This document shows positions 3,020 through 36,063 of a DNA stretch of 64,000 nt, in pieces. The DNA is taken from assembly GCA_049585595.1 (NCBI GenBank), contig JBAVAG010000013.1, positions 23,643-87,642 on the forward strand, written 5' to 3'. Every line of letters starts with the position of its first letter. The first letter of the stretch is position 1. The stretch comes from Desulfobaccales bacterium (GTDB taxonomy: Bacteria > Desulfobacterota > Desulfobaccia > Desulfobaccales > 0-14-0-80-60-11). Made by a program: the position numbers and the translations under genes. The notes beneath the pieces were generated by a model. It did not search any database, had not been told where the DNA came from, and saw only the letters and a program-made list of their open reading frames with translations.

Positions 3020-3087
3020 AAGCAAAATTTCCAGTTGGAGATTTAGTGCAATGCCTCAGCGATCCTAAAAAACCATAGGGGAATTCC

Positions 3088-5865
3088 ATGGCCGGGAAAA
3101 AAGGCGACACCCCCACCCCCATCTTCGATTTCAAGTATAAGGACAAGCGCCGCAACATCCCCACCTATGAATTGCGGGATTTTGCCGCCGACCAGGAAAA
3201 AGCCCCCAAGGACATCCTCTATCCCCGAGACCCCTCCTTGGACCCGCAACTGGTCTGGAAGGGCAAGGATGAGCAGGATCGGGAAGACCTGGCTGTGCCC
3301 GCCGTGCCAATTTACATCCAGGAAAAGATTCTCCCCAAGGCCATCATCGAGGAGGTGCGGGCGCAGGCCCGGAAGGATAAGCCCGAACCCCAGGCGTCCC
3401 TCTTTGCCGATTTCAACGGTATCGCCTTTGAAGACCTGGTGGACTTCTACCGCCACGAGCAGAATTGGAGCAACCGCCTGATCCTGGGGGACTCCCTGCT
3501 GGTGATGACTTCCCTGGCCGAAAAGGAGGGCCTTAAAGGCCAGGTGCAGATGATCTACATAGACCCGCCCTACGGCATCAAGTTTGCCTCCAATTGGCAG
3601 GTCTCGACACGCAAGAGGGAGGTGAAGGATGGCAAGCTGGAAGACCTTACCCGCCAGCCTGAGCAAATCCGGGCTTACCGGGACACCTGGAAGCTGGGCA
3701 TCCATTCCTACCTAACCTATCTGCGGGACCGTCTGGTGGTGGGCAGGGAATTGCTCACCGAGACCGGCAGCATCTTTGTGCAGATCGGCGACGAGAATGT
3801 GCATTTGGTGCGATGTTTGATGGATGAAGTTCTTGGAAGTGAAAACTTTATTGCTCTTATAACTTTTGTAAAAACGGCAAGCCAAACAGCAGAGTTACTT
3901 CCAGAAATAAAAGACAATTTACTCTGGTATTCAAAAAACATCGAAAATGTGAAGTTTAATCGCATTTATTTGTCAAAAGAAATGCTTGGAGGAGGTAAGG
4001 AAGCATATCATTTTATTGAGATATCAGAAGGCGTTAGAAGAAATATGACCAAGGATGAGAAAGAAAAAGGAGGATTAGATGAGTCTGTCGTTAAGGTTTT
4101 TAGAGCTGACAATCTTACTTCTCAAAGCGGAGGTGCAACTACAAAGTATGAGGTTTCTTTTGAGGGAAAACCTTATAATTCTGGACCTGGGTTTTGGAAA
4201 ACAAATGATATAGGTATGGGGAGACTTATTTATACAAACCGCTTAATACCGATTGGAAAAACTCTCTCCTATGTCAGATATCTAAATGATTTTTCTGTAT
4301 TTCCAATTTCCAATAGTTGGTCGGATACTGTTATAGCAGGCTATGGAGACCCTAAAATTTATGCAGTTCAAACTAATACGAAAGTAGTTGAGCGCTGCCT
4401 CCTCATGACCACCGACCCCGGCGACCTGGTGCTGGACCCCACCTGTGGCAGCGGCACCACCGCCTATGTGGCGGAGAAGTGGGGGAGGCGCTGGATTACC
4501 ATAGACACCAGCCGGGTAGCTCTGGCCCTGGCCCGCACCCGCCTCATGGCCGCCAAGTATCCTTATTACCTCCTGGCCGACTCCCCGGAAGGCATCAAGA
4601 AGGAAGGGGAACTTACCGGCCAGGTCTCCCCACCCTACCCGACCGAGGGGGAAATTAAAAAAGGGTTCGTTTACAAGCGGGTCCCCCACATCACCCTCAA
4701 GTCCATCGCCAACAACGAGGAAATCGATGCTATCTATGCTAAGTGGCAGGAGAAGCTAGAAGCCCTGCGCCAGGAATTGAACCGAACTCTAAACCACACC
4801 TGGGAAGAGTGGCAAATTCCCCGTGAGCCGGAAGACTCATGGCCCCAGGCGACGAAAGACCTCCTGACCCAATGGTGGAGTTTGCGCCGGGAGCGCCAGC
4901 AGGAGATCGACGCCAGTATCGACCGCCACGCCGACACCGAACTCCTCTATAACCAGCCCTATGAGGATGGCAAACGCCTACGGGTCACGGGTCCCTTCAC
5001 CGTGGAAAGCCTCTCCCCTCACCGCGTCCTGGCCCCGGAGGTGGAACTCCCGGAATCGGAAGCCCAGGCGCAGCGGGAAGCCGACCTGGGCCAGTTTGAG
5101 ACCATGATCCTGGACAACCTGAAGAAGGCCGGGGTGCAGAACACCATCAAGAACGAGCGCCTAAAATTCGACCTCTTGGAGCCTTACGCCGGGGAATGGC
5201 TCCACGCCGCCGGGGAATACACCGAGGACGACGGCACGGTGCGCCGGGTGGCCTTATGTATCGGCCCGGAGCACGGTACTGTCGGCCCGGAACTGGTGAA
5301 GGAGGCGGCCAAGGAAGCGGTCAAGGGCATGGGCTTCGAGCTTCTCATCATCTGCGGCTTCGCCTTTGATCCCCACGTCTCCGAGGAAGCCAAACGCTTC
5401 GGCAAGCTCGCGGTGCTCCCCTGCCGCATGAATCCGGACCTGGCCATGGGCGACGAACTCTTGAAGAAGACCGGGGCGGGCAACCTCTTCATGGTCTTTG
5501 GCGAGCCGGACGTGGAAGTGCGGACACAGAAAGACGGCAAACTGGTGGTGGAGATCAAGGGCCTGGACATCTACGACCCCACCACCGGCCAGATTCGCTC
5601 AAGCTCCACCGACGACCTGGCCTGCTGGTTCATTGACACCAACTACAACGACGAGAGCTTTTTTGTGCGCCACGCCTACTTCACCGGGGCCGATCAACCC
5701 TATGACAAGCTCAAAAGGGCTCTCCGGGCCGACATCGATGAGGCCGCCTGGTCCGCCCTCTACTCCACCGTCAGCCGCCCCTTCCCCAAACCCACCACCG
5801 GTAAAATCGCCATCAAGGTCATCAATCACTACGGCGACGAAGTTCTGAAGGTCTTTGAAACGTAA
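3088..5865 (+). CDS. DNA methyltransferase, beta-class amino-MTase (Mod-like, N6-A or N4-C), with AT-rich central target-recognition segment
   Basis: 925-aa ORF. Motif IV IYIDPPYGIKF lies upstream of motif I LDPTCGSGTT, which is the beta-class order. GGAAT-rich RBS region precedes the ATG. Paired with the upstream Res helicase. Confidence 0.88.
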   Translation: MAGKKGDTPTPIFDFKYKDKRRNIPTYELRDFAADQEKAPKDILYPRDPSLDPQLVWKGKDEQDREDLAVPAVPIYIQEKILPKAIIEEVRAQARKDKPEPQASLFADFNGIAFEDLVDFYRHEQNWSNRLILGDSLLVMTSLAEKEGLKGQVQMIYIDPPYGIKFASNWQVSTRKREVKDGKLEDLTRQPEQIRAYRDTWKLGIHSYLTYLRDRLVVGRELLTETGSIFVQIGDENVHLVRCLMDEVLGSENFIALITFVKTASQTAELLPEIKDNLLWYSKNIENVKFNRIYLSKEMLGGGKEAYHFIEISEGVRRNMTKDEKEKGGLDESVVKVFRADNLTSQSGGATTKYEVSFEGKPYNSGPGFWKTNDIGMGRLIYTNRLIPIGKTLSYVRYLNDFSVFPISNSWSDTVIAGYGDPKIYAVQTNTKVVERCLLMTTDPGDLVLDPTCGSGTTAYVAEKWGRRWITIDTSRVALALARTRLMAAKYPYYLLADSPEGIKKEGELTGQVSPPYPTEGEIKKGFVYKRVPHITLKSIANNEEIDAIYAKWQEKLEALRQELNRTLNHTWEEWQIPREPEDSWPQATKDLLTQWWSLRRERQQEIDASIDRHADTELLYNQPYEDGKRLRVTGPFTVESLSPHRVLAPEVELPESEAQAQREADLGQFETMILDNLKKAGVQNTIKNERLKFDLLEPYAGEWLHAAGEYTEDDGTVRRVALCIGPEHGTVGPELVKEAAKEAVKGMGFELLIICGFAFDPHVSEEAKRFGKLAVLPCRMNPDLAMGDELLKKTGAGNLFMVFGEPDVEVRTQKDGKLVVEIKGLDIYDPTTGQIRSSSTDDLACWFIDTNYNDESFFVRHAYFTGADQPYDKLKRALRADIDEAAWSALYSTVSRPFPKPTTGKIAIKVINHYGDEVLKVFET

Positions 5866-15518: not shown

Positions 15519-16940
15519 TTAGAGAACCGACCTCACCGCCACTCTGGCCAGTTCCACGATGCGGTCCGGGAAGATGCCGAAGCCGATGATCACCGCGGCC
15601 AGAGAGTAGTTCAGCAAGCGGCTGGGCAGGCTCAGGATTATCGGCGAGAGGCCCGGATCGTCTTTGAAATAGGCGGCGTAGAGCACCCGCAGATAGTAAT
15701 AGAGGGACACGGTGCCGTTCACTGCGCCGATCAACACCAGCCAAAAATAGCCGGAGTTCATGGCGGAGGTGAAGAGCAACAGCTTCCCGGTGAAGCCGAT
15801 GGAGGGGGGCACTCCCGCCAGGGCAAAGATCCCCAGGATCAGGTTCATGCTGAGCAAAGGACTGCGGCGGTAGAGGCCGCCCAACTCCACAATCTTCAAA
15901 TCCCGGCCGTCCGCGGCCACTTCCGAAAGGACCATAAACACCGTAAAGTTCATCACCAGGTAGGCCAGGGCATAGTAAACGGCGGCGGTGTAGCCCGCCT
16001 CCCTCAAGGTCAAGATCCCTATGAGAAAGTAGCCGGCGTGGGCAATGGAGGAGTAGGCCAGCATGCGCTTGAAGTCTTTCTGGATAATGGCCACCAGGTT
16101 GCCCAGGGTCATGGAGGCGATGGAGAGGATCATCAGGGCCTTGGTGAAGCCGTAGCCGTAGCCGGCCCCGAGGGCTGCGAAACGCAGCAGCAGGGCCACC
16201 GCGGCCGCCTTGGAGGCGGTGGCGATGAAGGCGGTAACCTGATTGGCGGCGCCCTGGTAAACGTCCGGGGCCCAGAAGTGGAAGGGAAAGACCGACAGCT
16301 TGAAGAAGAAGCCGGCCATGGCCAGGAGCAGGCCGATGAGACCGATGGGGCTTTGGGTCAATTGGGACAGCTTGGGCGCCAGCTCGGCCAGGTAAGTGGT
16401 GCCGGTGGCCCCAAAGATATAGCTCAGACCGAAGAGCATAAAGCCGGAAGAGACCGCGCCGATGAACAGGTACTTGATGCCCGCCTCCACGTCGATGCCG
16501 TCCCCCCGGCGCAGGGGCACCAGGATGTAGAGGGAATAGGAGGAGAGCTCCAGGGCCACGTAAATGGTGAGGAGTTCCACCGCCGAGACCAGCAGCATCA
16601 TGCCGATAATGGTGGTGGTGAGAAACAGGTAAAATTCGGCCTGCTGGCGCTCCTCGATGTGGGCCAGGTTATGGGAGATGGTGAGCACCAGGAAGAGGCC
16701 CAGGGACAGGGCGAACTTGAAGATCTGGCTGAAAAGGTCGACCCGGTAGGCTTTATAGAAAAGATAACCATGCTGAAAAAGGCAGGAGGCGGTGAGCAGC
16801 ACCCCCACCCCGGCCAGTACCAGGGCGATGCGGTAATCGGTCTTGACCTGGGGCGTTCTCCTGAGGCTAAGGCAGAAAAAGACCAGGGCCAGGCCCAAGT
16901 AATAGAGTTCCGGTCCGAACAGCGTCACATTCATGGTCAC
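15519..16940 (-). CDS. nuoN: NADH-quinone oxidoreductase subunit N
   Basis: 473-aa polytopic antiporter-like protein, last gene of the nuo operon. Start overlaps the nuoM stop. Confidence 0.9.
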   Translation of the reverse strand: MTMNVTLFGPELYYLGLALVFFCLSLRRTPQVKTDYRIALVLAGVGVLLTASCLFQHGYLFYKAYRVDLFSQIFKFALSLGLFLVLTISHNLAHIEERQQAEFYLFLTTTIIGMMLLVSAVELLTIYVALELSSYSLYILVPLRRGDGIDVEAGIKYLFIGAVSSGFMLFGLSYIFGATGTTYLAELAPKLSQLTQSPIGLIGLLLAMAGFFFKLSVFPFHFWAPDVYQGAANQVTAFIATASKAAAVALLLRFAALGAGYGYGFTKALMILSIASMTLGNLVAIIQKDFKRMLAYSSIAHAGYFLIGILTLREAGYTAAVYYALAYLVMNFTVFMVLSEVAADGRDLKIVELGGLYRRSPLLSMNLILGIFALAGVPPSIGFTGKLLLFTSAMNSGYFWLVLIGAVNGTVSLYYYLRVLYAAYFKDDPGLSPIILSLPSRLLNYSLAAVIIGFGIFPDRIVELARVAVRSVL

Positions 16941-18409
16941 ATTCCCTGGAGAAAGGGGATTATCGCGGTTTTAATCGTGCCCACCATCAGTTGCGGGAAA
17001 AACCCGAAGAGAATCAGGACGCTGATGAGGATCATGCGAGGCAAACCCAGGAAGGGGCTGACGTCCTGAAAATGGACGAACTTGGGGTTCGGCTCGTTGA
17101 AAAAGGTATTCTGCACGACTCGCAAGGCGAAGAGGGCGCCCACCACCAGGGCGGCGATGGCCAGCAGCCCCTGCACCGGGTAGACCTTGACGGCGGCGAT
17201 AAAGACCAGCAATTCGGCCCAGAAACTGGCCAGTCCCGGCACCCCGGCGCCGCACAAGGCCGCGGTGATAAAGAAGGCGGAAGCCACCGGCATAATTTTG
17301 GAGAAGCCCCCCAACTCGTGAATGTCACGGGTATGGGTGCGATCGTAGATAAAGCCCACCGAAGAGAAGAAGAGGGCGGTCATGATGCCGTGGGCGAACA
17401 TTTGGAAGACACTGCCGTTGAGGCCGTCCACCGTGCCGGTGGCCAGCCCCAGGCAGACGATGCCCATGTGGGACACCGAGGAATAGCCGATCACGTACTT
17501 CAAGTCGGTCTGGGCCAGGCCTACGAAGACGCCATAGACAATGCCCACGGTGGCCAGCAGGGCCATGAGCTGGGCCCAATAGTGAAAACCTACCGGGCAG
17601 AGATACATGGCGACCCGCAAGATGGCGAAAGAGCCCAGCTTCATGAGCACTCCGGCATGGAGCATACTCACCGCGGTGGGGGCGGCCACGTGGCCCACCG
17701 GCGACCACGTGTGGAACGGCCAGACCGCGGCCAGGACCCCGAAGCCGAAGAACAGCATCACAAAGGCAACCCTCTGGGTCCAGTAGGGGAAGTGGGCGGC
17801 ATGCAGCCGGATCATGTCGAAGGTCTGGAGGCCCGAAGAGGAATAGAGCAGCAGGATGCCGGGAATGATGAGACCGCTGCCGGCCATCAGATACAGGGTG
17901 AGCTTCATGGCGGCGTATTCTTTGCGGGTGGAGCCCCAGACCAGGATGAGGATGTACATGGGCACCACAGCGATCTCATAGAACAGGAAGAACATAAAGA
18001 GATCGTAGGACATGAAGACGCCGAAGACCCCGGTGACCAGGGCCAGCATCCAGATGAAGTATTCCTTGGTGCGCACCTCCAGCTCCCACATGGTGAGGAC
18101 GCCGGTAAAGATGACGATGCCGGTGAGCAGCAGCAGTGGGGCGTTCAGGCCCTCGACCCCTACGTGGTAGGTGATGCCGAAGGTCTTCACCCACTGGTAC
18201 TTCTCCACGAACTGCAAGCCCCCCAGGGTCCGGTCATAGGCCACAAAGGTGTAGATCGCCAGGGCCAGGGAGATGCCCGCAGCCACCAGGGATACGGCCT
18301 TGATGAGGAACTTCTGATCGTCCCGCAGGGTGAGGAGGACCAGCAGTCCCGCCGGCGGGGCCAGCAGCATGCAGGAGAGAATGGGGAATGATGCCATGTG
18401 TTCGGTCAT
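16937..18409 (-). CDS. nuoM: NADH-quinone oxidoreductase subunit M
   Basis: 490-aa antiporter-like subunit, positioned between nuoL and nuoN. Confidence 0.9.
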   Translation of the reverse strand: MTEHMASFPILSCMLLAPPAGLLVLLTLRDDQKFLIKAVSLVAAGISLALAIYTFVAYDRTLGGLQFVEKYQWVKTFGITYHVGVEGLNAPLLLLTGIVIFTGVLTMWELEVRTKEYFIWMLALVTGVFGVFMSYDLFMFFLFYEIAVVPMYILILVWGSTRKEYAAMKLTLYLMAGSGLIIPGILLLYSSSGLQTFDMIRLHAAHFPYWTQRVAFVMLFFGFGVLAAVWPFHTWSPVGHVAAPTAVSMLHAGVLMKLGSFAILRVAMYLCPVGFHYWAQLMALLATVGIVYGVFVGLAQTDLKYVIGYSSVSHMGIVCLGLATGTVDGLNGSVFQMFAHGIMTALFFSSVGFIYDRTHTRDIHELGGFSKIMPVASAFFITAALCGAGVPGLASFWAELLVFIAAVKVYPVQGLLAIAALVVGALFALRVVQNTFFNEPNPKFVHFQDVSPFLGLPRMILISVLILFGFFPQLMVGTIKTAIIPFLQGM

Positions 18410-18411
18410 AA

Positions 18412-20340
18412 TCAGCGACCCATCAAGAGGTAGATCCCGACCCCGGCCACAACTACAACCATGAAGAACAGATTGTATTGCAAAAAGGCGGTCTGGACGA
18501 AAGAGAGCAGCCTGCCGCTGCCGACGGTGGAGAGGGCCACCGCGTCCACCCCGCCGTCCACCACCCGGCGGTCATTGAGGGTAAATATCCGGGAAAAGGT
18601 GCCGTAAATCACGGTGTTGAGGAACCAGCGCCAGAAGTCGTCCATATACCATTTCCGAATGAAGAATTCCTGCAGCCATGGAACTTTTTGGATAAATCCC
18701 TGGCACTTGGCGCCTTGCGCGCCCCAATCGAACCAGGCCACTGCAATGCCGCCCACGCCGCAGCATAAGGCGCCAGCCATCAGGAAATAATTGAGCGCCT
18801 CGGGACCTGCTTCCCCCAACAACAACTTCTGCAGATAGCCCTCGCAGAAACCGAGGGTCAGGGTGAAGAGGGCCAGGACGATGAGGGGAAAAACCATGAC
18901 CCAGGGCACCCTGTGGTGTTCGTCGGTGGCGTCGCCGTGCGCGTGCCCGTGGCCGGGGTGAGCCTCCACGTGGCCGGGGACCTTCCCGTAGGCGCCGGGT
19001 TTGGGAAAGAGCATGACAAAGATCACCCGGAAGGAGTAATAGGCGGTCAGGAAGGCGCCCAAAAGCCCCATGGCCAGCCAGAACTTGTTAGGCAGTTGGT
19101 TTAGGGCCCCCATCACCAGCTCCTTGCTAAAGAAGCCGGACAGGGGAGGGATGCCCGCCAGGGCCAGGGCGGCAATGGTCATACAGACCATGGGAATCGC
19201 CAGCTTCCGCCCCCCGTTGCTGGCCATGGTGAAAAAGTCGTTGGTGCCGAAATGATGAATGAAGACCCCGGAACAGAGGAAGAGCAGGGCCTTGAAGGCG
19301 GCGTGGGTGGTTAGGTGGTAATAGCCTGGGAACAGGGTGCCGGAGGCCAGTCCGGCGGCGGCCAGCCCCATGGCCATGAAGCCCAGTTGGCTGATGGTGG
19401 AATAGGCCCACACCTGTTTGATGTCGGTAGCCACCATCCCGATGGTGGAGGAGATCAACAGGGTTAGGGTGGAAATCGCCAGAATTACAGTCATGGCTGT
19501 GGCCGAAGCCGAGAAAAACGGGAAGATGCGGGTCATGAGATAGATGCCGGCGGCCACCATGGTGGCGGAGTGGAGCAGGGCCGAGACCGGGGTGGGGCCT
19601 TCCATGGCGTCGGGCAGCCAGACGTGCAGGGGGAACTGGGCGCTCTTGCCCATGACTCCGCAAAAGATCAGCAAAGCCGCAGGGGTGAGCAGCCAGGGAG
19701 GCATGGTTTTGGCCACGGCCGCGGCGTTAACCGAGGCGATATCCAGGTTGCCGTAAAATATGGTGAGGAATACCAGCCCCATGAAGAAGCCGATGTCGCC
19801 GAAGCGGGTGACCACAAATGCCTTCTTCCCGGCCTCCGAGGCGGAGAATTTCTCATACCAGAAGCCGATGAGCAGGTAGGAGGCCAGGCCCACCAGCTCC
19901 CAGGCGATGTAAAGCTGCAAGAGGCCGCTGGAGATCACCAGGGTGAGCATGGCCAGGGCGAAGAGGGAGAGGTCGGCATAGTAGCGCCCGAACCCCGGGT
20001 CCCCGTCCATGTAACCGATGGAATAGATCTGCACCAGCCAACTGATGGTGGCCACGATACAGAGCATCACCAGGCTGGTGGGGTCCAGGAGGAAACCGAA
20101 GGGGACCTTGACCACGTCCGAAACCAGCCAGTGGAAGTTATAGATGATGGGCTTTTCCAGGCCCCCCAGCGTGAAGAAAAAGCTCCAGGCAATAATGAGG
20201 GGGATAGTGGAGGCCGTGAGCGAGATGGCCAGCGAGAGGCAGGGCCTGTTTCTGGTGAAGATCATGATCAGACCAAAGGCCGCCAGCGGCAGAAATACCG
20301 TCAGCAGACAGCCCCAAAGGATCGGATCGGACGAGCCCAT
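18412..20340 (-). CDS. nuoL: NADH-quinone oxidoreductase subunit L
   Basis: 642-aa antiporter-like subunit with the long C-terminal extension typical of NuoL. Confidence 0.9.
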   Translation of the reverse strand: MGSSDPILWGCLLTVFLPLAAFGLIMIFTRNRPCLSLAISLTASTIPLIIAWSFFFTLGGLEKPIIYNFHWLVSDVVKVPFGFLLDPTSLVMLCIVATISWLVQIYSIGYMDGDPGFGRYYADLSLFALAMLTLVISSGLLQLYIAWELVGLASYLLIGFWYEKFSASEAGKKAFVVTRFGDIGFFMGLVFLTIFYGNLDIASVNAAAVAKTMPPWLLTPAALLIFCGVMGKSAQFPLHVWLPDAMEGPTPVSALLHSATMVAAGIYLMTRIFPFFSASATAMTVILAISTLTLLISSTIGMVATDIKQVWAYSTISQLGFMAMGLAAAGLASGTLFPGYYHLTTHAAFKALLFLCSGVFIHHFGTNDFFTMASNGGRKLAIPMVCMTIAALALAGIPPLSGFFSKELVMGALNQLPNKFWLAMGLLGAFLTAYYSFRVIFVMLFPKPGAYGKVPGHVEAHPGHGHAHGDATDEHHRVPWVMVFPLIVLALFTLTLGFCEGYLQKLLLGEAGPEALNYFLMAGALCCGVGGIAVAWFDWGAQGAKCQGFIQKVPWLQEFFIRKWYMDDFWRWFLNTVIYGTFSRIFTLNDRRVVDGGVDAVALSTVGSGRLLSFVQTAFLQYNLFFMVVVVAGVGIYLLMGR

Positions 20341-20342
20341 GG

Positions 20343-20660
20343 TTAACCCCTCAGTTCCGTGGCTTGATCGATATTCACGGTTTTAATCCTGCGGTACACC
20401 GCGATAATGATACTCAGGGCGATGGCGGCTTCCGCGGCAGCCACCGCCATGATGAACAGGGTGATGATCTGGCCCACCGCCGGCTGCGGAGCCAGGAAAC
20501 GGTTGAAGGCCATGAAGTTGATGCTGGCGGCGTTGAGGATGAGTTCCACCGAAATGAGCACCGCGATCAGGTTGCGCCGCGCCAGCACTCCATAAAGGCC
20601 GATGGCGAAGAGCACCAGGGCCAGAAAGAGATAGGTCTGCAAATGGTTAAAGAGCAGCAT
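20343..20660 (-). CDS. nuoK: NADH-quinone oxidoreductase subunit K
   Basis: 105 aa with three TM helices. Position and size match NuoK. Confidence 0.9.
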   Translation of the reverse strand: MLLFNHLQTYLFLALVLFAIGLYGVLARRNLIAVLISVELILNAASINFMAFNRFLAPQPAVGQIITLFIMAVAAAEAAIALSIIIAVYRRIKTVNIDQATELRG

Positions 20661-20663
20661 CGA

Positions 20664-21200
20664 TCACCTCTCGGGAGCCCCGCGGCCGCGGCCGCCCCGG
20701 GCCGTGACCATGGCCCCCAGCATGGCCACCAGTAAGAGCAGGGAAACCACTTCAAAGATCAGGGAATAAGTGGTCAGGAGGTAATGCCCCAGGGTGGTTA
20801 CCGACCAATCGGAGGCGCGCACCGGGGCCGGGATCCAGGTAGTCTTTTTCAGCAGCAGCGAAAGGAAGATGAAGACCGCCAGGGCGCCAGCCAGGGCAGC
20901 CGTGATCTTCAAGGGGTTTCGGGGAGGCCGGGGCAGGTATTGGGGTTCTGAAAGCATCACCGCAAAGCAGATGGCGACGCAGATGGCGCCCACGTAGATG
21001 AGGATCTCCATCAGGGCCACAAAGGGGCTGTTTAAATAGACGAAGAGGCCCGCAACCCCGAAGAGCGCCAAAGCCAGCCCCAGGACATTATGAAAGATCT
21101 TGCGGGCCGCCACCGCAATCAAGGCGCCCAGGATGGTCAGGGCCGCTATCAGGATAAAGGCGGCGGCGGCCAGGTTTTCCGGACTTAAGAGGGCGCTCAT
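20664..21200 (-). CDS. nuoJ: NADH-quinone oxidoreductase subunit J
   Basis: 178-aa membrane protein between nuoI and nuoK. Confidence 0.85.
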   Translation of the reverse strand: MSALLSPENLAAAAFILIAALTILGALIAVAARKIFHNVLGLALALFGVAGLFVYLNSPFVALMEILIYVGAICVAICFAVMLSEPQYLPRPPRNPLKITAALAGALAVFIFLSLLLKKTTWIPAPVRASDWSVTTLGHYLLTTYSLIFEVVSLLLLVAMLGAMVTARGGRGRGAPER

Positions 21201-21838
21201 TTTTTGACCTCTTCAGGTTCAGGCTCCGCCTTTGGCGGCTTGTTCTCCTCCGGGGGCTGGGCGGGTTTGGCCGCCTTCGCCTGGGCCGCCTTGGCCGCCG
21301 CCTCTTTTTCCCGGGCTTCCCGGGCGGCCGCCTCAGCCGCCTCGGCCGCGGCTATCTCTGCCGCGGTGGGAATGGGGGTGAGGGGTAAACCGGCGGCCTG
21401 CTGGCGCTCTTGCAAAAGGGTCAGGTGATCGATGACCGCATCCTCGCGGCGAAAACCCGCCAGGCGGTATTCCCGGGAATATTCCAAGGCCGTGGTTGGG
21501 CAGACCTCGAGGCATAGTCCGCAGAGACTGCAGTAGTAGTACTGGTGGACGTAAGTGTAGGGCACCTTCTGCTTGGCCCCCGGCAGCTTGACCCCAGAGA
21601 GCGAGATGAGCTGGGACGGGCAGATGCGGGCGCACATCTCGCAGGCGATGCAGCGATGCGTCTGGGTCTCGGGGTCGAGGATAAAGCGGGGATAGCCGCG
21701 ATAGGCGGGGCTCATCTCGATCTTCTGGCGGGGGTACTGGACGGTGACCACGGGTTTGAAGAAATAACGGATAGTCACCGCCATGCCCGCCAGCAGGCTC
21801 CAGAATCCCGAGGCAATCTCTCTAAAATAGGTCAGCAT
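21197..21838 (-). CDS. nuoI: NADH-quinone oxidoreductase subunit I (2x[4Fe-4S]) with an Ala/Glu/Lys/Pro-rich C-terminal tail of about 70 aa
   Basis: CIACEMCARICP and CSLCGLCLEVCP cluster motifs. Tail reads AAEIAAAEAAEAAAREAREKEAAAKAAQAKAAKPAQPPEENKPPKAEPEPEEVKK. Confidence 0.9.
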   Translation of the reverse strand: MLTYFREIASGFWSLLAGMAVTIRYFFKPVVTVQYPRQKIEMSPAYRGYPRFILDPETQTHRCIACEMCARICPSQLISLSGVKLPGAKQKVPYTYVHQYYYCSLCGLCLEVCPTTALEYSREYRLAGFRREDAVIDHLTLLQERQQAAGLPLTPIPTAAEIAAAEAAEAAAREAREKEAAAKAAQAKAAKPAQPPEENKPPKAEPEPEEVKK

Positions 21839-21864
21839 GGCTCAGTCAACCGTAAGCGGCCCTC

Positions 21865-22839
21865 TCACCTGAGTTTCAATACCAGGGCGGTGACCAGCAG
21901 ATTGGCGAAGGCCAGGGGAATCAAGACCTTCCAGGCCAGGGTGATCAACTGATCGAAGCGTACCCGGGGGAAGGTCCAGCGGAACCACATCATCAGAAAG
22001 ATGAGGGCGTAGACCTTCAGGAGAAACCAGATCACCCCGGGCAGGATGGGGCCTTGCCAGCCCCCCAGGAAAAGGACGGCGGCCACCGCCGAGGTGATGA
22101 ACATATTAGTGTATTCCGCCAGGAAGAACAGGGCGAAGCGCATGCCGGTATATTCCGTGTGGAACCCGGCCACCAATTCTGACTCGGCTTCCGGCAGGTC
22201 GAAGGGGGCGCGGTTGGTTTCGGCAGTGGCGCAAGTAATAAAAAGGATAAAGGCCAGGGGCTGCACCAGGATGAACCAGTGAGAACTCTGGGCCGCCACG
22301 ATGTCCGAGAGCTTGAAGGAGCCCACCATCAGGATCACGCTCATCACCGTGATGAGCAGAGGGATTTCGTAAGCAATATTCTGGGCCACCGAGCGGATGG
22401 CCCCCAAAACCGCGTATTTATTATTGGAAGACCAGCCGGCCATGAGGATGGCCAGGACCGCCAGGGTGGAAAAGGCGAGGATCAGCACGATCCCCACGTT
22501 CAGGTCCCTGATGATCAGGGACCGGGAAAAGGGGATCACCAGAAAGGAGAGCAACGCCGGCAGGAAGATGACGATGGGGGCCAGCCGGTAAATGGGCCGG
22601 TCCACCTCTTCCGGGGTGATGAGCTCCTTGCTGATTAGTTTCAGGGTGTCGGCCACGGTTTGCAAGGCGCCGTGGGGCCCCACTTCCATGGGACCCAGGC
22701 GGAGCTGCATGTGGGCCGAGACCTTGCGCTCCATCCAGATGAGAAACAGGGCGTTCACGACAACCAGGGCAATGACCCCGATGAGGCCGATGATCATCCT
22801 GCCTGCTTCCGTTCCCCAATATTGCGCCAACATTTCCAT
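21865..22839 (-). CDS. nuoH: NADH-quinone oxidoreductase subunit H
   Basis: 324-aa polytopic protein with [21 protein letters not shown], the NuoH/ND1 signature. Confidence 0.93.
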
Positions 22840-22941
22840 AGTCAGTAGTCAGTTGCCAGTAGCCAGTAATCAGTGGTCAGTGGTCAGTGTTAGTTGCCAG
22901 TAAAAACAGAAAACAGAAAACAGAAAACAGAAAACCATCAG
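22840..22941. repeat. Heptamer-periodic tandem array filling the whole nuoD-nuoH spacer: about 8 CAGTNNN units then (CAGAAAA)x4
   Basis: cagtagt cagttgc cagtagc cagtaat cagtggt cagtggt cagtgtt agttgc cagtaaaaa, then cagaaaa x4 (22907-22934). Confidence 0.95.
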
Positions 22942-24072
22942 TTAGCGGTCGATTTCCGGAATCACCAGGTCCACCGAGCCCAGGATAGCCACCAAGTCGG
23001 CCACGAGGGTGTCCACCGCCACCTCGGGAATGATGCTGAGATTGCCGAAGGACGGCACCCGGAGTTTAATGCGGTAGGGTTTGATATCGCCCTGGCTGAC
23101 GATATAACAGCCGAATTCGCCCCGGGCGCTTTCCACCGCCTGATAGACCTCACCCGCGGCAGGTATCAGGCGTTTGGGCACCTTCTCCGCCATGATGGGG
23201 CCGTTGGGGAGCTTGTTGAGGGCCTGCTCGACGATCCGCAGGCTCTGCTCCATTTCCAGCATGCGGACGAGATAGCGGTCGAAGACGTCGCCCCTGCTGC
23301 CGACGGGAATCTGAAAGTCGAAGGCCGGGTAGGCGGAATAGGGCTCGCTCTTGCGGATGTCGTAAGCGATGCCGCTGCCCCGGAGGCTGGGGCCGGTGAT
23401 GCCGTATTGCACCGCCTGGTCTCTGGTGATCACACCGACGTCTCGGGTGCGGTTGATGAAGATGACGTTCTTGGTGACCAGCGACTCGTAATCCCTGAAG
23501 CGGCTGCGCAACCGTTTGATAAAGGCCCGGGCGCCGGTGATGAACTCCTCGTCGAGGTCCCGGGGCGCTCCGCCGAAGCGGAAGAAGCAGTAAGTGAGCC
23601 GGGAACCGGTGATCCGGTCCAGCAGGTCCAGGATATGTTCCCGATCATCGAAGGAATAGAGGATAGGGGTGAAGGCCCCCAGGTCCAGGAGATAGGCGCC
23701 CATCCAAAGGAGGTGGGAGGAGATGCGGTTCAGTTCGCTCAAAATTACCCGGATGAACTCCCCCCGCTCCGGCACCGTGAGTCCGACGAGTTTTTCCACC
23801 GCCATGCAGTAGCCCTGATTGTAGGCCAGGGCGTGCACGTAATCGACCCGGCCCATGTTGGGCAGGAACTGCTGGTAGTTGCGATTCTCGGCCATGTGCT
23901 CGTGGCCCCGGTGGCCGTAGCCAATGACCGGTTCAGCCTTGGTAATATACTCCCCGTCCATCGTCAGGAGCACCCGCAGGACCCCGTGGGTGCTGGGATG
24001 CTGCGGACCCAGGTTGAGGGTATAGTTCTTTTCTTCTATTCCTAACTCAATCATTTTTGGATTCGGCTCCAA
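22942..24072 (-). CDS. nuoD: NADH-quinone oxidoreductase subunit D
   Basis: 376 aa. LNLGPQHPSTHGVLR, with C-terminus ending EIDR. The start may be the ATG at 24054, which overlaps the nuoC stop. Confidence 0.93.
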   Translation of the reverse strand: MEPNPKMIELGIEEKNYTLNLGPQHPSTHGVLRVLLTMDGEYITKAEPVIGYGHRGHEHMAENRNYQQFLPNMGRVDYVHALAYNQGYCMAVEKLVGLTVPERGEFIRVILSELNRISSHLLWMGAYLLDLGAFTPILYSFDDREHILDLLDRITGSRLTYCFFRFGGAPRDLDEEFITGARAFIKRLRSRFRDYESLVTKNVIFINRTRDVGVITRDQAVQYGITGPSLRGSGIAYDIRKSEPYSAYPAFDFQIPVGSRGDVFDRYLVRMLEMEQSLRIVEQALNKLPNGPIMAEKVPKRLIPAAGEVYQAVESARGEFGCYIVSQGDIKPYRIKLRVPSFGNLSIIPEVAVDTLVADLVAILGSVDLVIPEIDR

Positions 24073-24502
24073 AATCTTTCAGCAACGGATGGAAATCGGC
24101 GTCTTCCGGCAGCAGCAGGCGCTTCAGGTTGGGGTGTCCGGCGAACTTGATGCCGAAGAGATCGAAAACCTCCCGTTCGTACCAATCGGCGCCCGGATAT
24201 ACCCGGGAGATGGTGGGCGGCTGGGCCTCCTGCCCTGCTTTCGCCAGGGAGGCGCGCACTACGGTGCGGCACAGTTCATCAAAACTGGCGAAGTGATAGA
24301 CCAGCGTGAAGGATTCCCGCAGGTCCACCGCGGTGAGAGATTCGAGAAAGCAGCGCTGGTCCAGCATGGTCCTTGCCACGGCCGGCATCTGCCCGGGAGC
24401 CGCGGCCACCTCCAGGTGATAACCGGTCTTTGAGTAATCGCCGTCGCTCACCTGGGACAGGTTCAAGGGGGCCAGGGCTGCTTTGATATTATCCTTTAAC
24501 AT
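24047..24502 (-). CDS. nuoC: NADH-quinone oxidoreductase subunit C
   Basis: [31 protein letters not shown]. The ORF track starts at 24607, but that stretch overlaps nuoB. MLKDN at 24502 overlaps the nuoB stop by 14 nt. Confidence 0.88.
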
Positions 24503-24989
24503 TTCTGAACTTCCTGAGGCGGCCCCGTTTGGTGATCTTCTCTTCCAGCATGAGGATCGATTCGATGATGGCCTCGGGCCGGGGCGGGCAGCCGGGTATA
24601 TAGACATCCACCGGGATGATCAGGTCGGCGCCGGGGACGATGGCGTACTGGTTCGGGTAGTAGAAGGGGCCGCCGGAGATGGCGCAGTTGCCCATGGCGA
24701 TCACCCACTTGGGAGCCGGCATCTGCTCATAGAGGCGAACCACGGCCGGGGCCATCTTCTTGGAGATGGTGCCGGCCACGATCATCAAGTCCGATTGCCG
24801 GGGAGAGGGGCGAAAGACCCCGGCCCCGAAGCGGTCCAGGTCGAAACGGGCCATGCCCGCGGCCATCATTTCGATGGCACAGCAGGCCAGCCCGAAGGTC
24901 AGGGGCCACAGGGAGTTGGCCCTGGCCAGGTTCAGGGCTTCTTCCAGGAGGCCCAGGCGGATTAAGGGGTCACCTGTTTTCGTTTCCAA
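24489..24989 (-). CDS. nuoB: NADH-quinone oxidoreductase subunit B
   Basis: [20 protein letters not shown] and PGCPPRPEA (N2 cluster ligands). Confidence 0.95.
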
Positions 24990-25354
24990 CTGAAGACTCC
25001 TCGGCGCCAGGCATAAACCAGGACCAGGGAAAGAATGCCGATGAAGATGGTGATTTCCACAAAGTCGAGCCAGGCGTATCCCTTGCCATAAGCCAGCAGA
25101 ACCGGGAAGAGGAAGAGCACGTCCACGTCAAAGGCCAGGAACAGCAGGGCGAACAGATAATAGATGACCGCCACCTGAATCCAGGCGCTGCCGATGGCGG
25201 GCATCCCGCACTCATAAATGTCGTCCCGGGCGGCCCCATAGCTCCGGGGGGCGATCAGGTGGGCCAGGATGATGGGGCCCAGGGCGAAGAGGGCGGCCCC
25301 CACCAGGAAGACCAGGACAAAGGAGAAATCGTTCAAGGCCTGCGGGAGTTCCAA
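24962..25354 (-). CDS. nuoA: NADH-quinone oxidoreductase subunit A
   Basis: 130 aa with three TM helices and YECGMP. TTG start with AGGAG 7 nt upstream. Confidence 0.88.
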
Positions 25355-25389: not shown

Positions 25390-25419
25390 TTTATATCCCA
25401 GATGAAAAATCTTAGTCAA
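25390..25419 (-). promoter_or_regulatory. Candidate sigma70-type promoter of the nuo operon
   Basis: On the minus strand: TTGACT (25419-25414), 18-nt spacer, TATAAA (25395-25390), about 35 nt upstream of the nuoA start. Confidence 0.4.
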
Positions 25420-25463
25420 GGAGTTTGTAACAGGACAGGCTAATTTATTCGCAGGGCGGGCCC

Positions 25464-25492
25464 CCGTAAGGCGGGAAAGCGAAGCGCCTCCC
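25464..25492. repeat. GC-rich palindromic unit (inverted copy of the GGCGGGA..TTCCCGCC repeat)
   Basis: The reverse complement contains gggaggcgcttcgctttcccgcc, identical to 26683-26705. Confidence 0.8.
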
Positions 25493-25600
25493 CCCTTCGG
25501 GTACTGGGGTAATCTTAAATCAGGCCCGAATTCGGTGTTTATGGTTGTGAGTGGGCTGGAGATGAGGACGTTAGGCGTCTGGAGAGGGAAGGGGGCGAAA

Positions 25601-25635
25601 GGCGGGAGACGCGTCGCTTTCCCGCCCTACGGTCC
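25601..25635. repeat. 35-bp repeat, left copy of the direct repeat flanking the riboswitch/PEP-CTERM cassette
   Basis: ggcgggagacgcgtcgctttcccgccctacggtcc matches 26679-26713 at 32 of 35 positions. Confidence 0.85.
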
Positions 25636-25678
25636 TTTTATAATGAGTATAATTTTCTATTAAATTCCTATAGAGACC

Positions 25679-25707
25679 TTGACTGATTTCAAAATAATAC
25701 CTATATG
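25679..25707 (+). promoter_or_regulatory. Candidate sigma70-type promoter driving the riboswitch leader
   Basis: TTGACT (25679-84), 17-nt spacer, TATATG (25702-07). Confidence 0.45.
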
Positions 25708-25715
25708 CATGATAC

Positions 25716-25793
25716 GGAAAAAGCCAAACCCGCCGCGAGGCGGGGACGGAAAGCCACGGGTCCCTGTGGTGAGAGAGATAGCCGGGTTGCCTG
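25716..25793 (+). promoter_or_regulatory. c-di-GMP-I (GEMM-I)-like riboswitch aptamer
   Basis: GCCAAACC-CGCC-GCGA-GGCG-GGGACGGAAAGCC-ACGGG...GAUAGCCGGGUUGCC parallels the V. cholerae Vc2 aptamer as I recall it (GGCAAACC-AUUC-GAAA-GAGU-GGGACGCAAAGCC-UCCGG...GGUAGCGGGGUUACC). GNRA tetraloop present. Confidence 0.6.
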
Positions 25794-25814
25794 GAAGGCA
25801 AACCGTTTTTTTTT
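25785..25814 (+). terminator. Intrinsic terminator forming the riboswitch expression platform
   Basis: GGTTGCC (25785-91), loop TGGAA, GGCAAACC (25797-804, one bulge), then G plus T9. The left arm is shared with the 3' end of the aptamer. Confidence 0.6.
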
Positions 25815-25917
25815 CGTTTGAGCCTGGACAAGAGCGTAGATGCGAGAATCAATATAAATCGATAGTTAAAGAGGTTCACCCAGGCAAGAAACCTTTCTTA
25901 ACGAAGAGGAGGAGGCA

Positions 25918-26448
25918 ATGAGAGCAGTCAGGCGCGCCTTAAAATTCATCGTGGCCAGTGTGGCTAGCGCAACATTGATTATGGCAATTTTCGCCCCGGT
26001 TGCTATGGCGATACCTACTGGTTTGCCGGCGACGCTGACCCCGGGGGCCGAAACTGGACCCACATCCTAGGACTGGAATCTCTTCACGGGTACCGGAGAA
26101 TACCTGGCAACCGGCGACACCTTAACGCTGTCGGGGATAGGGGGTGTCACTGCGGTCAGCGCTCCCAGTTATGGGACGTGGTTAACCTCGTTCACCAGCA
26201 GCACGGTGACGTGGACCTATGAATCGGGAGTAGGGACTCCCGGCATAACGATCTATGGATTTGATGTAACGACGTCGCCGGAAGCTACCGGCACGATAGA
26301 CTGGAGTGCAATGGAGACATCTGAGCTTGGCTCCACTTTCACTGGCACGGCGATTGGGCCCGTTCCGGTGCCAGCCCCGGTGTTCCTGCTGGGAACTGGC
26401 CTCCTGGCGCTGGCGTGGTTCCGCCGGAAAAAGCCTTCGGGGATATAA
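25918..26448 (+). pseudogene. Secreted PEP-CTERM-anchored protein gene interrupted by one in-frame TAG (pseudogene or read-through)
   Basis: GAGGAGGAGG RBS and ATG at 25918. Sec signal MRAVRRALKFIVASVASATLIMAIFAPVAMA. TAG at 26068-26070. The same frame continues for 125 codons (the track ORF 26206-26448 is its tail) and ends VPVPAPVFLLGTGLLALAWFRRKK, a PEP-CTERM-type sorting signal. Confidence 0.7.
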
Positions 26449-26678
26449 CCGCACCGCCAGCGGCAGCTCCTCCTCGGTTCCGGCCTCCTGGTTCTGGGGG
26501 GCTTAAGGATGTGCCAAAAGAGTTAATACACCTCCTCCATCAGAATTACCCGAGGCATGGTCAGTTATGGCCCTGCCTTTTTTATTCCAGACTAAAATAG
26601 GCCCTAATGGGGTATTTATTACCTTGGGTGGGGGGAGCAGTGACGAGGTTAGGGGTCAGGGGATAGAATGATTCGCAA

Positions 26679-26713
26679 GGCGGGAGGCGCTTCGCTTTCC
26701 CGCCCTACGGTCC
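26679..26713. repeat. 35-bp repeat, right copy of the direct repeat flanking the riboswitch/PEP-CTERM cassette
   Basis: ggcgggaggcgcttcgctttcccgccctacggtcc. Confidence 0.85.
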
Positions 26714-26766
26714 CACAGTCATTTGCTTGATCCAATGCGGCCCATTAATGGTTCGCACCTATTAGG

Positions 26767-27219
26767 TTAGGCGATGGGTTTAATATTATTATCCGGGAGG
26801 CGAACTATGGTGAACCAAAAATTCCCGATGGCGTTGACCAACTTAATGAATTCATCGAGCCCTACGGGTTTGGTAATATAACAGTTGGCTCCCAAATGAT
26901 AGCTCTTGATCACATCTTCCTCCGCCTGCGAAGTGGTCAGGACACACACCGGAATCGCCTTGAGGTTATCGTCCATCCTCATTTCGGCCAAAAAGGTGCG
27001 GCCATCCATCCGGGGCATGTTGAGATCCAGGAGAATCAAGTCGGGACGAGGCGCCTGGGCGAACTCCCCCTCTCGCCGCAGAAAATTCAGGGCTTCGACA
27101 CCGTCACCGGCCACGTGCAGATTGACCACCAACTTCGATTTCTTGAGAGTATACTGCGTCATTTCCACGTCGGCAGGGTCGTCTTCCACCAGAAGAATTT
27201 CCGGCAATTCGACTACCAT
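26767..27219 (-). CDS. Single-domain response regulator (CheY-like receiver)
   Basis: 150 aa. [10 protein letters not shown], phospho-acceptor context [13 protein letters not shown], and conserved K in ITKP. Confidence 0.9.
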
Positions 27220-34674: not shown

Positions 34675-36063
34675 TTATCGAGGCATACCGATGGGGGCCT
34701 GGTTCCAATAGGTGACAGAGCCATTGTGCCATTTGACGAGGCGGACGTCGCCGTCCTGAGAAATGACGATGGCAAAGGCGTCGTGCAGTTCGTGGCATAG
34801 CCGGTAGGCAGCCCGGTGCCGGGTCCCGACCCACTCGCTAAGCTCCGTCTCGACCTGGTCCCCCTCGGTATCGAGGGCGCGGGCCACCGTCTGCACTTCA
34901 TCGATATCTCCCAGGATAAAGCCGCCGAAGCCGAGAAGGTCGGAGCGCTTGGTCAGGACTACCGCGCCATCGATGGCAGAAAGGCTGGCGATGAAATAGG
35001 CCAGATCGAAAATGGCCTCATCGAGCAGCGCAATCTCCTCTCGCTGGCAGGAGACATAATCTTCCCAGCCGATGACCTTCTCCGGATCATTGGCATCTGC
35101 AAGCAGTTCCGCGGCGGTGTTGATTATACGCAGCATCAGGGTGCGGAAGCGCTGGCGCGGCTCATCCTCGCGGAATTGGTACTTGATGCTGAGGTAGCGG
35201 TTTTGGACCTCGAGCTCAGGGGCCATCTCCGGCGGCAGGTAGACCAGCATGCCGCCGTGGCGGGAATTGCGGATGACGCTGATAATGCGCCTCACCACTT
35301 GTTGGGCGACCATTCTGGCGAACTGCGGGTCTAACCTGGCCCAGGGCCGCTTCGACCTGGCCCGCGCCGCGGCGTGCAGCTCTCTCATCTCGGAACGGAC
35401 GGAGGCAAAACTTTCTGAAAGCCATCGGGCCGCAAAGACATCCTGGGTTGGATAATTCATCGGGCCGCCGGTCAAGGAAGCTATCACCTTGGGACCCAGG
35501 CTAACCGAGATCTGTCCGGGCCCGGTTACGTAGATTAAGGGGCAGGCGGGCAGCGGGGTACAGGTTTTCCGGCCACCCAGCACTTCCTGGAGCCACCGGT
35601 TTCCTGAGTTAATGATTCCCCAAATCTGCGGCCTATTTTTTGAATCGAGATTGATCGCCACCAGCATTCGGGAAAAATCTACAGCCGGAGTGAGGCGCTG
35701 CAGTTCGAATTCATTGAAAGGCCGCGTCCGGGCGAATGTCAGAGGTTGTAAGCCGGTGGGAGGTCCTTCCTGGGCGGGAAGGATTTCCGGATCGCAGATG
35801 ATGAGGCGAAACTCGATGGCCCGTTCTTCTTCCCGCAACAGACTGGCCTGGTAACAGACCGAGATGACCTGCTCGAGAACGGCCCGTTCCGGGAGCGGAG
35901 CCGGGGGCGCGAACCCGTTGGCGCGCAGGCCCTCCATAAACAGAGGGTCTTTCTGAATATCCAGGATAAACGAGACCAATTCCTGGGGGTAGGCATGGAC
36001 TCTCGTTTTCAGGTCCCCGGTGTGGCCAGGCGCCGCGTTTCTCAGGGTCTTTGCTGCCTGCAT
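34675..36063 (-). CDS. DAC (diadenylate cyclase, DisA_N)-like domain protein with an uncharacterised N-terminal domain of about 250 aa
   Basis: 462 aa. C-terminal region has HGGMLVYL, IDGAVVL (DGA motif, nt 34963-34971), GTRHRAA (RHR motif, nt 34813-34821) and IVISQDGDV, parallel to CdaA/DisA DAC domains. Confidence 0.6.
   Translation of the reverse strand: MQAAKTLRNAAPGHTGDLKTRVHAYPQELVSFILDIQKDPLFMEGLRANGFAPPAPLPERAVLEQVISVCYQASLLREEERAIEFRLIICDPEILPAQEGPPTGLQPLTFARTRPFNEFELQRLTPAVDFSRMLVAINLDSKNRPQIWGIINSGNRWLQEVLGGRKTCTPLPACPLIYVTGPGQISVSLGPKVIASLTGGPMNYPTQDVFAARWLSESFASVRSEMRELHAAARARSKRPWARLDPQFARMVAQQVVRRIISVIRNSRHGGMLVYLPPEMAPELEVQNRYLSIKYQFREDEPRQRFRTLMLRIINTAAELLADANDPEKVIGWEDYVSCQREEIALLDEAIFDLAYFIASLSAIDGAVVLTKRSDLLGFGGFILGDIDEVQTVARALDTEGDQVETELSEWVGTRHRAAYRLCHELHDAFAIVISQDGDVRLVKWHNGSVTYWNQAPIGMPR

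Follow-up and report, generated by a model that had tools for sequence, protein, structure and literature searches.

A class-I c-di-GMP aptamer overlapping an intrinsic terminator upstream of a PEP-CTERM gene in a Desulfobaccales bacterium: a predicted ON switch

Of the riboswitches described so far, those closest to the element analysed here include three class-I cyclic di-GMP (c-di-GMP-I, or GEMM-I) riboswitches and one cyclic GMP-AMP (cGAMP) riboswitch of Desulfobacca acetoxidans (Sherlock et al. 2022, PMC9481103); three of these four aptamers were examined by in-line probing, in which c-di-GMP was favoured by the two that have G at the key position, and the switches are predicted to be ON switches (PMC9481103). 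An ON switch of class I that works by anti-termination has been proven in Bacillus thuringiensis, where Bc2 precedes the collagen adhesin gene cap (PMC4933901); position 20 is A in the cGAMP-sensing GEMM-Ib riboswitches of Geobacter (work by Kellenberger 2015 and Nelson 2015, cited through PMC6140456 and PMC9481103); and in Methylophaga nitratireducenticrescens GP59 c-di-GMP riboswitches have been annotated before PEP-CTERM and VPLPA-CTERM genes (PMC12530212). How the class reads its ligand is known from the Vc2 aptamer of Vibrio cholerae: G20 and C92 each read one ligand guanine, C92 by a Watson-Crick pair; wild-type affinity is picomolar for c-di-GMP, and cGAMP is bound at about 10 uM; the G20A change moves binding toward cGAMP (PMC6140456); and the conserved A47 stacks between both ligand bases (PMC9049102). 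Here we analyse a 64,000-nucleotide (nt) stretch of contig JBAVAG010000013.1 from a metagenome-assembled genome of a Desulfobaccales bacterium, phylum Thermodesulfobacteriota (positions 23,643 to 87,642 of the contig; hereafter the window, in whose own coordinates all positions are given), which carries a GEMM-I aptamer in the leader of a PEP-CTERM gene. Judged by its sequence, the RNA is a canonical class-I c-di-GMP aptamer, and its 3' strand forms one arm of a terminator hairpin.

A class-I aptamer that shares nucleotides with a terminator

Scanning the window with Rfam gave a single gathering-level match, to clan CL00126 at 25714-25795, where a second model of the same clan also exceeded its own threshold with a lower score; the match is far beyond chance. 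The original prediction had read the leader as a counterpart of the Vc2 aptamer, with a GNRA-capped first hairpin and the conserved core, and the strings it relied on are present and belong to a 72-bit clan match. It had also expected RF01051 to recognise the RNA, which proved true in part: RF01051 is significant on 25722-25790, the interval left when P1 is trimmed (49.6 bits against a threshold of 35, E 1e-9), and RF03167 falls below its own threshold there, but the top model for the complete aptamer is RF03167. The parts of the aptamer are as follows.

25714-25795, plus strand: c-di-GMP-I (GEMM-I) aptamer (RF03167, 72 bits, E 4.3e-15, model positions 1-80 of 80)
25723-25730, plus strand: 5' strand of the aptamer, GCCAAACC (sequence inspection)
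25723, plus strand: G equivalent to Vc2 G20 (alignments to RF03167 and RF01051)
25729-25744, plus strand: first hairpin, CCCGCC-GCGA-GGCGGG, with the GNRA tetraloop GCGA (sequence and folding)
25743-25755, plus strand: GGGACGGAAAGCC (sequence inspection)
25750, plus strand: A equivalent to Vc2 A47, aligned with the A of the RF01051 consensus CGCAAAgCc
25752-25788, plus strand: second long helix, P2 in the Rfam drawing (Rfam alignment, folding, RNAalifold)
25790, plus strand: C equivalent to Vc2 C92 (RF03167 alignment), a base that also lies within the terminator stem

All three contact nucleotides are canonical, G20, A47 and C92 of Vc2 being represented by G25723, A25750 and C25790, and the GGGACG-N-AAAGCC core is common to the window and Vc2. 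The first hairpin is closed below by C25724-G25749 and C25725-G25748, the former being a compensatory flip of the pair next to the binding pocket (G21-C46 in Vc2), while P2 consists of seven outer pairs (25752-25759 with 25782-25788) and inner pairs that join 25760-25762 and 25764 to 25775 and 25777-25779. Because position 20 is G, c-di-GMP rather than cGAMP is the expected ligand, and the aptamer very probably senses c-di-GMP as a member of class I.

The fold is also recovered from related sequences. When metagenome contigs were searched for the flipped-pair core CCAAACC...GGGACGGAAAGCCACGG, 120 of them proved to carry 133 aptamers in all (individual contigs are cited below by L numbers), from which 65 non-redundant members, the window included, were aligned with MAFFT and folded with RNAalifold; Rfam was not consulted in this step. 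The consensus contains the closing pairs, the first hairpin and the second helix, with seven pairs that change on both sides and strong covariation at columns 19-22 and 27-30 of the first hairpin, where each pair occurs as four or five pair types. P1 was not recovered from these 65 sequences.

Immediately 3' of the aptamer, and partly within it, lie the elements of a terminator platform.

25753-25770, plus strand: alternative hairpin GCCACGG/CUGUGGU, which ties up the P2 5' strand (minimum-energy fold)
25783-25805, plus strand: terminator hairpin of eight pairs with a G-A mismatch at 25786/25802 and the loop UGGAA (terminator scan and folding)
25784-25791, plus strand: aptamer 3' strand, GGGUUGCC (sequence inspection)
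25797-25804, plus strand: GGCAAACC (sequence inspection)
25806-25814, plus strand: U9 tract (sequence inspection; T10 in contig L125)

The terminator 5' arm, 25783-25791, is composed of the 3' partners of six of the seven outer P2 pairs, of G25789 and C25790, and of the P1 base C25791, and since this arm is built of aptamer nucleotides, aptamer and terminator are mutually exclusive. The minimum-energy fold of 25708-25816 (-42.5 kcal/mol, z = -2.5) combines the first hairpin with the hairpins at 25753-25770 and 25783-25805. With nearest-neighbour energies for the transcript 25714-25805, the Rfam secondary structure of the aptamer comes to -20.2 kcal/mol and the terminator together with the local hairpin to -35.3 kcal/mol, about 15 kcal/mol below the bare aptamer, so that the unliganded default is predicted to be OFF (termination). 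Folds of the growing transcript have the 25753-25770 hairpin formed by position 25772, give an aptamer-like P2 as the lowest-energy state only with the transcript end near 25793, and let the terminator state prevail from 25797 on. This order of events would fit the usual kinetically controlled ON switch, in which the ligand must capture the aptamer before the terminator 3' arm is made. The alternative hairpin at 25753-25770, to which these models assign a part in the ligand-free fold, was not seen to be conserved in the relatives.

Four terminator-like sites were found in the region, against 1.5 +/- 1.1 in shuffled sequences; since the terminator scan alone is thus not significant, the argument for an ON design rests on comparative data. 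We surveyed the platforms of 128 evaluable aptamers of the subclade from metagenomes with a strict terminator finder. In 36 of the 128, the window included, a hairpin with a T-run has a 5' arm that overlaps the aptamer 3' strand by at least 4 nt; 33 have a separate terminator farther downstream; and for the other 59 none was detected by this finder, which misses terminators with short T-runs (e.g. in L174 and L178), so that the 36 are a minimum. Many of the overlap-type platforms share a ...GCCGGGTTGCC-TGGAA... layout, given more fully as GCCGGGTTGCC-TGGxA...-GGYARCNCGG(C)-T-run in L172, L178, L187, L193, L221 and L224. Small PEP-CTERM proteins (185-289 amino acids) are encoded 3' of the aptamers of L140, L150, L162, L193 and L224, four of which were scored as overlap type; the L140 aptamer was scored as having its terminator farther downstream and is nonetheless followed by the same GCCGGGTTGCCTGGA sequence. 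L193 is 87% identical to the window over the aptamer and 72% over the sorting-signal end of the gene.

With nucleotides 25783-25791 shared, and with the same design in at least 36 of 128 relatives, the ON-switch shape proposed by the original prediction holds up, as does the proposed re-pairing of GGGUUGCC with GGCAAACC into a hairpin followed by U9, which both the terminator scan and folding return. No second terminator was found in the window leader. Taken with the folding models, these comparisons make it likely that the element is a terminator-based ON switch. What did not survive is the idea that GGCAAACC is a meaningful near copy of the 5' strand GCCAAACC. We considered a functional mimicry of GCCAAACC and rejected it: the GGCAACCCGG-type 3' arms of the relatives are plain complements of GCCGGGTTGCC, GGCAAACC is no more than an imperfect complement of GGGUUGCC, and because the window's own terminator 3' arm, GGCAAACCG, is the relatives' arm sequence with one mismatch, its likeness to GCCAAACC is coincidental.

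Other arrangements occur in the same subclade. In L129, L132, L137, L144, L169, L238 and others the separate terminator has a 5' arm (e.g. GCCCGTGG or CCGGATTACCGTGGCTT) complementary to the P2 5' strand GCCACGG, a layout that in many cases appears, by inspection, to be of the OFF type; ON and OFF platforms would then stand side by side in one subclade, and one aptamer lineage would have been fitted with both. Four contigs (L152, L199, L201 and L242, all from metagenomes) carry tandem arrays of class-I aptamers spaced about 75-165 nt apart. Each array has four aptamers by pattern, of which three or four score at Rfam gathering level; between the aptamers no terminators were detected, and the arrays lie directly upstream of genes for small secreted proteins of about 157-166 amino acids. 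A triple tandem c-di-GMP-I array has reportedly been published for B. thuringiensis.

Transcription and translation signals frame the aptamer.

25679-25684, plus strand: candidate -35 box TTGACT (sequence inspection; recurs upstream of relatives' aptamers)
25702-25707, plus strand: candidate -10 box TATATG, 17 nt past the -35 box (sequence inspection)
25906-25915, plus strand: ribosome-binding site GAGGAGGAGG, which precedes the ATG at 25918 (sequence inspection)

The promoter that had been proposed, TTGACT-17-TATATG, is present where it was said to be. A TTGAC(A/T) box lies 38-44 nt 5' of the G20 position in the window and in L193, L130, L172, L178, L224 and L187, and its recurrence at a like distance in at least six independent relatives supports TTGACT as the -35 box; the promoter of L193, TTGACT-17-TATTCT, stands at the same distance from the aptamer as that of the window. 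A promoter scan preferred TAGAGA-16-AATAAT (25671-25698) and did not list TATATG, because the consensus final T is missing from it. With either candidate, the transcript would begin no more than about 10 nt from the aptamer. The aptamer lies in the 5' leader on the same strand as the gene and ends 123 nt ahead of the ATG. About 100 nt separate the terminator from the ribosome-binding site downstream of it, which places that site outside the switch. On the opposite strand, the terminator scan lists a terminator-like site at 25744-25729, made of the complement of the first hairpin and an A-run (CCCGCCTCGCGGCGGG and then TTTGGCTTTT), which could halt antisense transcription from the response-regulator side.

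In the mechanism that we propose, transcription would start a few nucleotides upstream of 25714 and the leader would alternate between two folds. In the ligand-free state the P2 5' strand would pair locally (25753-25770) and 25783-25791 would pair with 25797-25805, so that the hairpin and the U9 tract behind it would stop RNA polymerase at about 25810-25815, some 100 nt short of the gene. Binding of c-di-GMP would lock the three-helix aptamer at 25714-25795, with G25723 and C25790 each reading one ligand guanine and A25750 stacked between them; the locked aptamer would keep 25782-25792 in P2, the junction and P1, the terminator would be blocked, and the polymerase would read through into the PEP-CTERM gene at 25918-26448.

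An interrupted target gene and the alternatives to the proposed c-di-GMP ON switch

The gene downstream of the leader is represented by two features.

25918-26448, plus strand: regulated gene, encoding a 176-codon secreted PEP-CTERM protein (translation; stop codon 26446-26448)
26068-26070, plus strand: in-frame TAG at codon 51 (W51*; translation)

Its translation from 25918 has a signal peptide at the N-terminus and the sorting motif VPVPAPVFLLGTGLLALAWFRRKK at the C-terminus. The intact allele, P0001 (176 amino acids, with TGG for Trp at codon 51), is encoded on contig L125, which is 97% identical to the window overall and has the same leader except for T10 in place of T9; a homologue search in 5.8 billion proteins matched this intact allele only. 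Against family models the intact protein scores above the cut-off for TIGR02595 PEP-CTERM (17.9 bits against 16) and just below those for TIGR03370 VPLPA-CTERM (23.7 against 25.35) and PF07589 (18.6 against 20.7). The description of the downstream gene as a PEP-CTERM gene is therefore supported by TIGR02595, though by neither of the other two models, and in this strain the reading frame is interrupted. The TAG is common to four assemblies (NCBI, ENA, Logan), all of them 100% identical to the window over 25400-26800; a sequencing error is unlikely, four assemblies of different origin being identical there, and pyrrolysine insertion or programmed read-through was rejected on the TGG of the intact allele at that codon. 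Because the intact allele has TGG, the TAG is best read as a recent nonsense mutation and not as recoding, and in this strain the switch controls a broken gene. Past the stop codon the frame continues over 26449-26526 as PHRQRQLLLGSGLLVLGGLRMCQKS*, a second, degenerate sorting-signal tail; the DNA of 26384-26420 and 26468-26504 forms a repeat with 73% identity, and the second tail resembles the residue of an earlier replacement or duplication of the 3' end. A Pfam scan of 20 large open reading frames (ORFs) of the window turned up neither an exosortase nor a GGDEF/EAL gene.

Several observations count against a working c-di-GMP ON switch at this locus. The terminator hairpin alone, with its G-A mismatch, is weak (-10.7 to -11.7 kcal/mol) and is the fourth weakest among the 36 overlap-type terminators. 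P1 comprises no more than two or three pairs (G25717-C25791, G25716-U25792 and possibly C25715-G25793), P2 contains a C-A mismatch (25763/25776) that is unique at that pair among the 65 aligned sequences, and we found no biochemically tested aptamer with the C-G flip of G21-C46, a flip that typifies the subclade. The TATATG box lacks the consensus final T, which leaves the promoter only consensus-like, and a pseudogene target means that the element may escape selection in this strain. Finally, the best full-length model, RF03167 (72 bits against a gathering score of 59), is that of the c-di-GMP-I-GGC variant, where 'GGC' presumably denotes G at position 47, as in the model consensus.

The weak terminator, among the weakest of its class, the P2 mismatch absent from the other 64 aligned relatives and the TAG in four assemblies could together mean that the switch is a decaying relic, defunct since its gene was inactivated. 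We consider this unlikely. L125, with its intact gene, shares the leader, T10 for T9 apart, and has both the weak terminator and the mismatch, which for this reason predate the nonsense change; that change is one recent G-to-A transition, no ligand-contact or core position has been lost, and the aptamer scores highly against the model.

If the switch is functional, its ligand might still be another. Sensing of 3'3'-cGAMP, as in Geobacter GEMM-Ib, or binding of both dinucleotides would agree with the existence of cGAMP-sensing GEMM-I variants in the same phylum, one of them in Desulfobacca acetoxidans (PMC9481103), and with A at position 20 in a few members of the subclade (L190, L207, L211 and L245). 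It is nevertheless improbable for the window, where position 20 is G25723 and not the A20 that marks GEMM-Ib: G20 accompanies c-di-GMP selectivity in Vc2 (PMC6140456), and in Desulfobacca both aptamers with G favour c-di-GMP (PMC9481103).

The rank of RF03167 as top Rfam model raises a further question, namely whether the aptamer belongs to the c-di-GMP-I-GGC class, with an altered pocket and possibly a different ligand. The RF03167 consensus reads GACGC-G-AAgCc where the window has GACGG-A-AAGCC, and the diagnostic model position 37, G in RF03167, is A25750 in the window, as in the RF01051 consensus. The GGC variant was reportedly defined, by Weinberg and colleagues in 2017, by its altered ligand pocket. 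The first-hairpin sequence was sought in 185,579 species genomes and occurred at 120 loci from many phyla, all 120 with A at position 47, and in the subset scanned with Rfam (17 aptamers in 16 of these loci) RF03167 was still the best match for 15 of the 17, at 63-79 bits. Moreover, the best-match label switches among RF01051, RF03167 and RF03168 inside single tandem arrays of near-identical aptamers. The variant label of the window is thus due to competition between related models and not to the binding pocket, and membership of the GGC class is very improbable. Best-match labels within CL00126 (RF01051/RF03167/RF03168) are unusable as statements on the binding pocket, as aptamers from GC-rich hosts with a canonical pocket are routinely labelled 'GGC' (or RF03168) by best match; automated tallies of 'GGC' and 'UAU' variants are probably inflated.

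An OFF switch, or control of translation instead of transcription, might be suspected from the 33 subclade aptamers with a separate downstream terminator, many of OFF type by inspection, and from the 59 without a detected one, but is hardly credible here, where the only hairpin with a U-tract in the leader uses the aptamer 3' strand and is blocked by the folded aptamer, no second terminator follows, and the ribosome-binding site, about 100 nt past the U-tract, has no evident pairing partner in the aptamer.

A repeat-bounded cassette and its surroundings

Two direct repeats exactly enclose the segment with promoter, riboswitch and gene (25637-26642).

25563-25635, plus strand: left copy of a repeat of about 73 nt (repeat search; homology with contig L246 ends here)
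26641-26713, plus strand: right, direct copy of the repeat (repeat search)
25464-25497: inverted copy of the 34-nt repeat core (repeat search)

The repeat core is AAGGCGGGAGRCGCNTCGCTTTCCCGCCCTACGG, and no further copies were found in the 64 kb window. On L246, a contig from a sister species whose response regulator is 92% identical to that of the window and whose flanks are 90-93% identical, homology to the window ends exactly at both repeats (about 5506-5531 and 7066-7091 of L246); the interval between them in L246 has genes for a flavodoxin-like and a membrane protein, and no GEMM motif was found in it. The same repeat flanks the riboswitch and PEP-CTERM module of L193 and is also scattered elsewhere on that contig (74-150, 1165-1213, 1385-1418, 13178-13212 and 13412-13510). 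The cassette is nearly unchanged in the 97%-identical strain contig, whose neighbouring kinase gene has many substitutions. An identification of the flanking repeats as integron attC sites was rejected, one copy having GTTAGGC and the other GTTAGGG, and the repeats being dispersed in L193; no integrase was found among the scanned ORFs of the window, and REP-like (repetitive extragenic palindrome-like) is the safer description.

From these comparisons, switch and gene would appear to behave as an exchangeable, repeat-bounded unit, with exchange either by homologous recombination or by something more specific. We tentatively raise the possibility, on which we would not yet rely, that a self-contained, c-di-GMP-responsive cassette, made up of promoter, riboswitch and PEP-CTERM gene, has been moved or swapped between REP-like repeats. 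If true, the c-di-GMP regulon of this lineage would grow by gaining ready-regulated surface-protein modules, and such repeat-bounded units may bring surface-protein genes under the control of c-di-GMP in these uncultured sulfate reducers.

The wider window contains the following genes.

5-5865: type III restriction-modification pair
15519-25354: nuo operon, divergent from the riboswitch cassette
34675-36063: protein with a diadenylate cyclase domain and a DACNV sensor domain
49926-52226: NorB-like nitric oxide reductase with a fused cytochrome c-like domain

Comparison with described riboswitches

With Vc2 and the RF01051 family the window aptamer shares the three-helix junction, the GNRA-capped first hairpin, the core, the equivalents of G20, A47 and C92, and the position in a 5' leader; it differs from Vc2 in having C-G for G21-C46, a short second helix with a different loop, and a terminator that overlaps the aptamer. 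The RF03167 variant resembles the window in its CGCC-GNRA-GGCG hairpin and in helix sequences typical of GC-rich hosts, and differs in its consensus G at position 47, which is A in the window. Geobacter GEMM-Ib has the fold, the phylum and a terminator-based ON design in common with the window, and is set apart by A20 where the window has G.

The riboswitches of Desulfobacca acetoxidans come from the same bacterial order and belong to the same class, and they too have intrinsic terminators and are predicted to be ON switches. However, they stand in tandem with adenosylcobalamin (AdoCbl) riboswitches as logic gates, whereas that of the window is single and stand-alone. Bc2 shares the class-I aptamer, a ligand that favours read-through (an anti-terminator) and a gene for a cell-surface protein; unlike the window it has a Firmicute host, another platform sequence and a cell-wall-anchored protein, and it is experimentally proven where the window switch is predicted. 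Methylophaga GP59 offers the same pairing of riboswitch class with gene class, but in a Gammaproteobacterium, with examples known from annotation and transcript levels only and with platforms that have not been described. Every element of the switch interpretation therefore has published precedent, and the target gene class is already linked to c-di-GMP; the window would be a routine addition, a further class-I ON switch of the design in which the aptamer hides the terminator, in an order with published switches.

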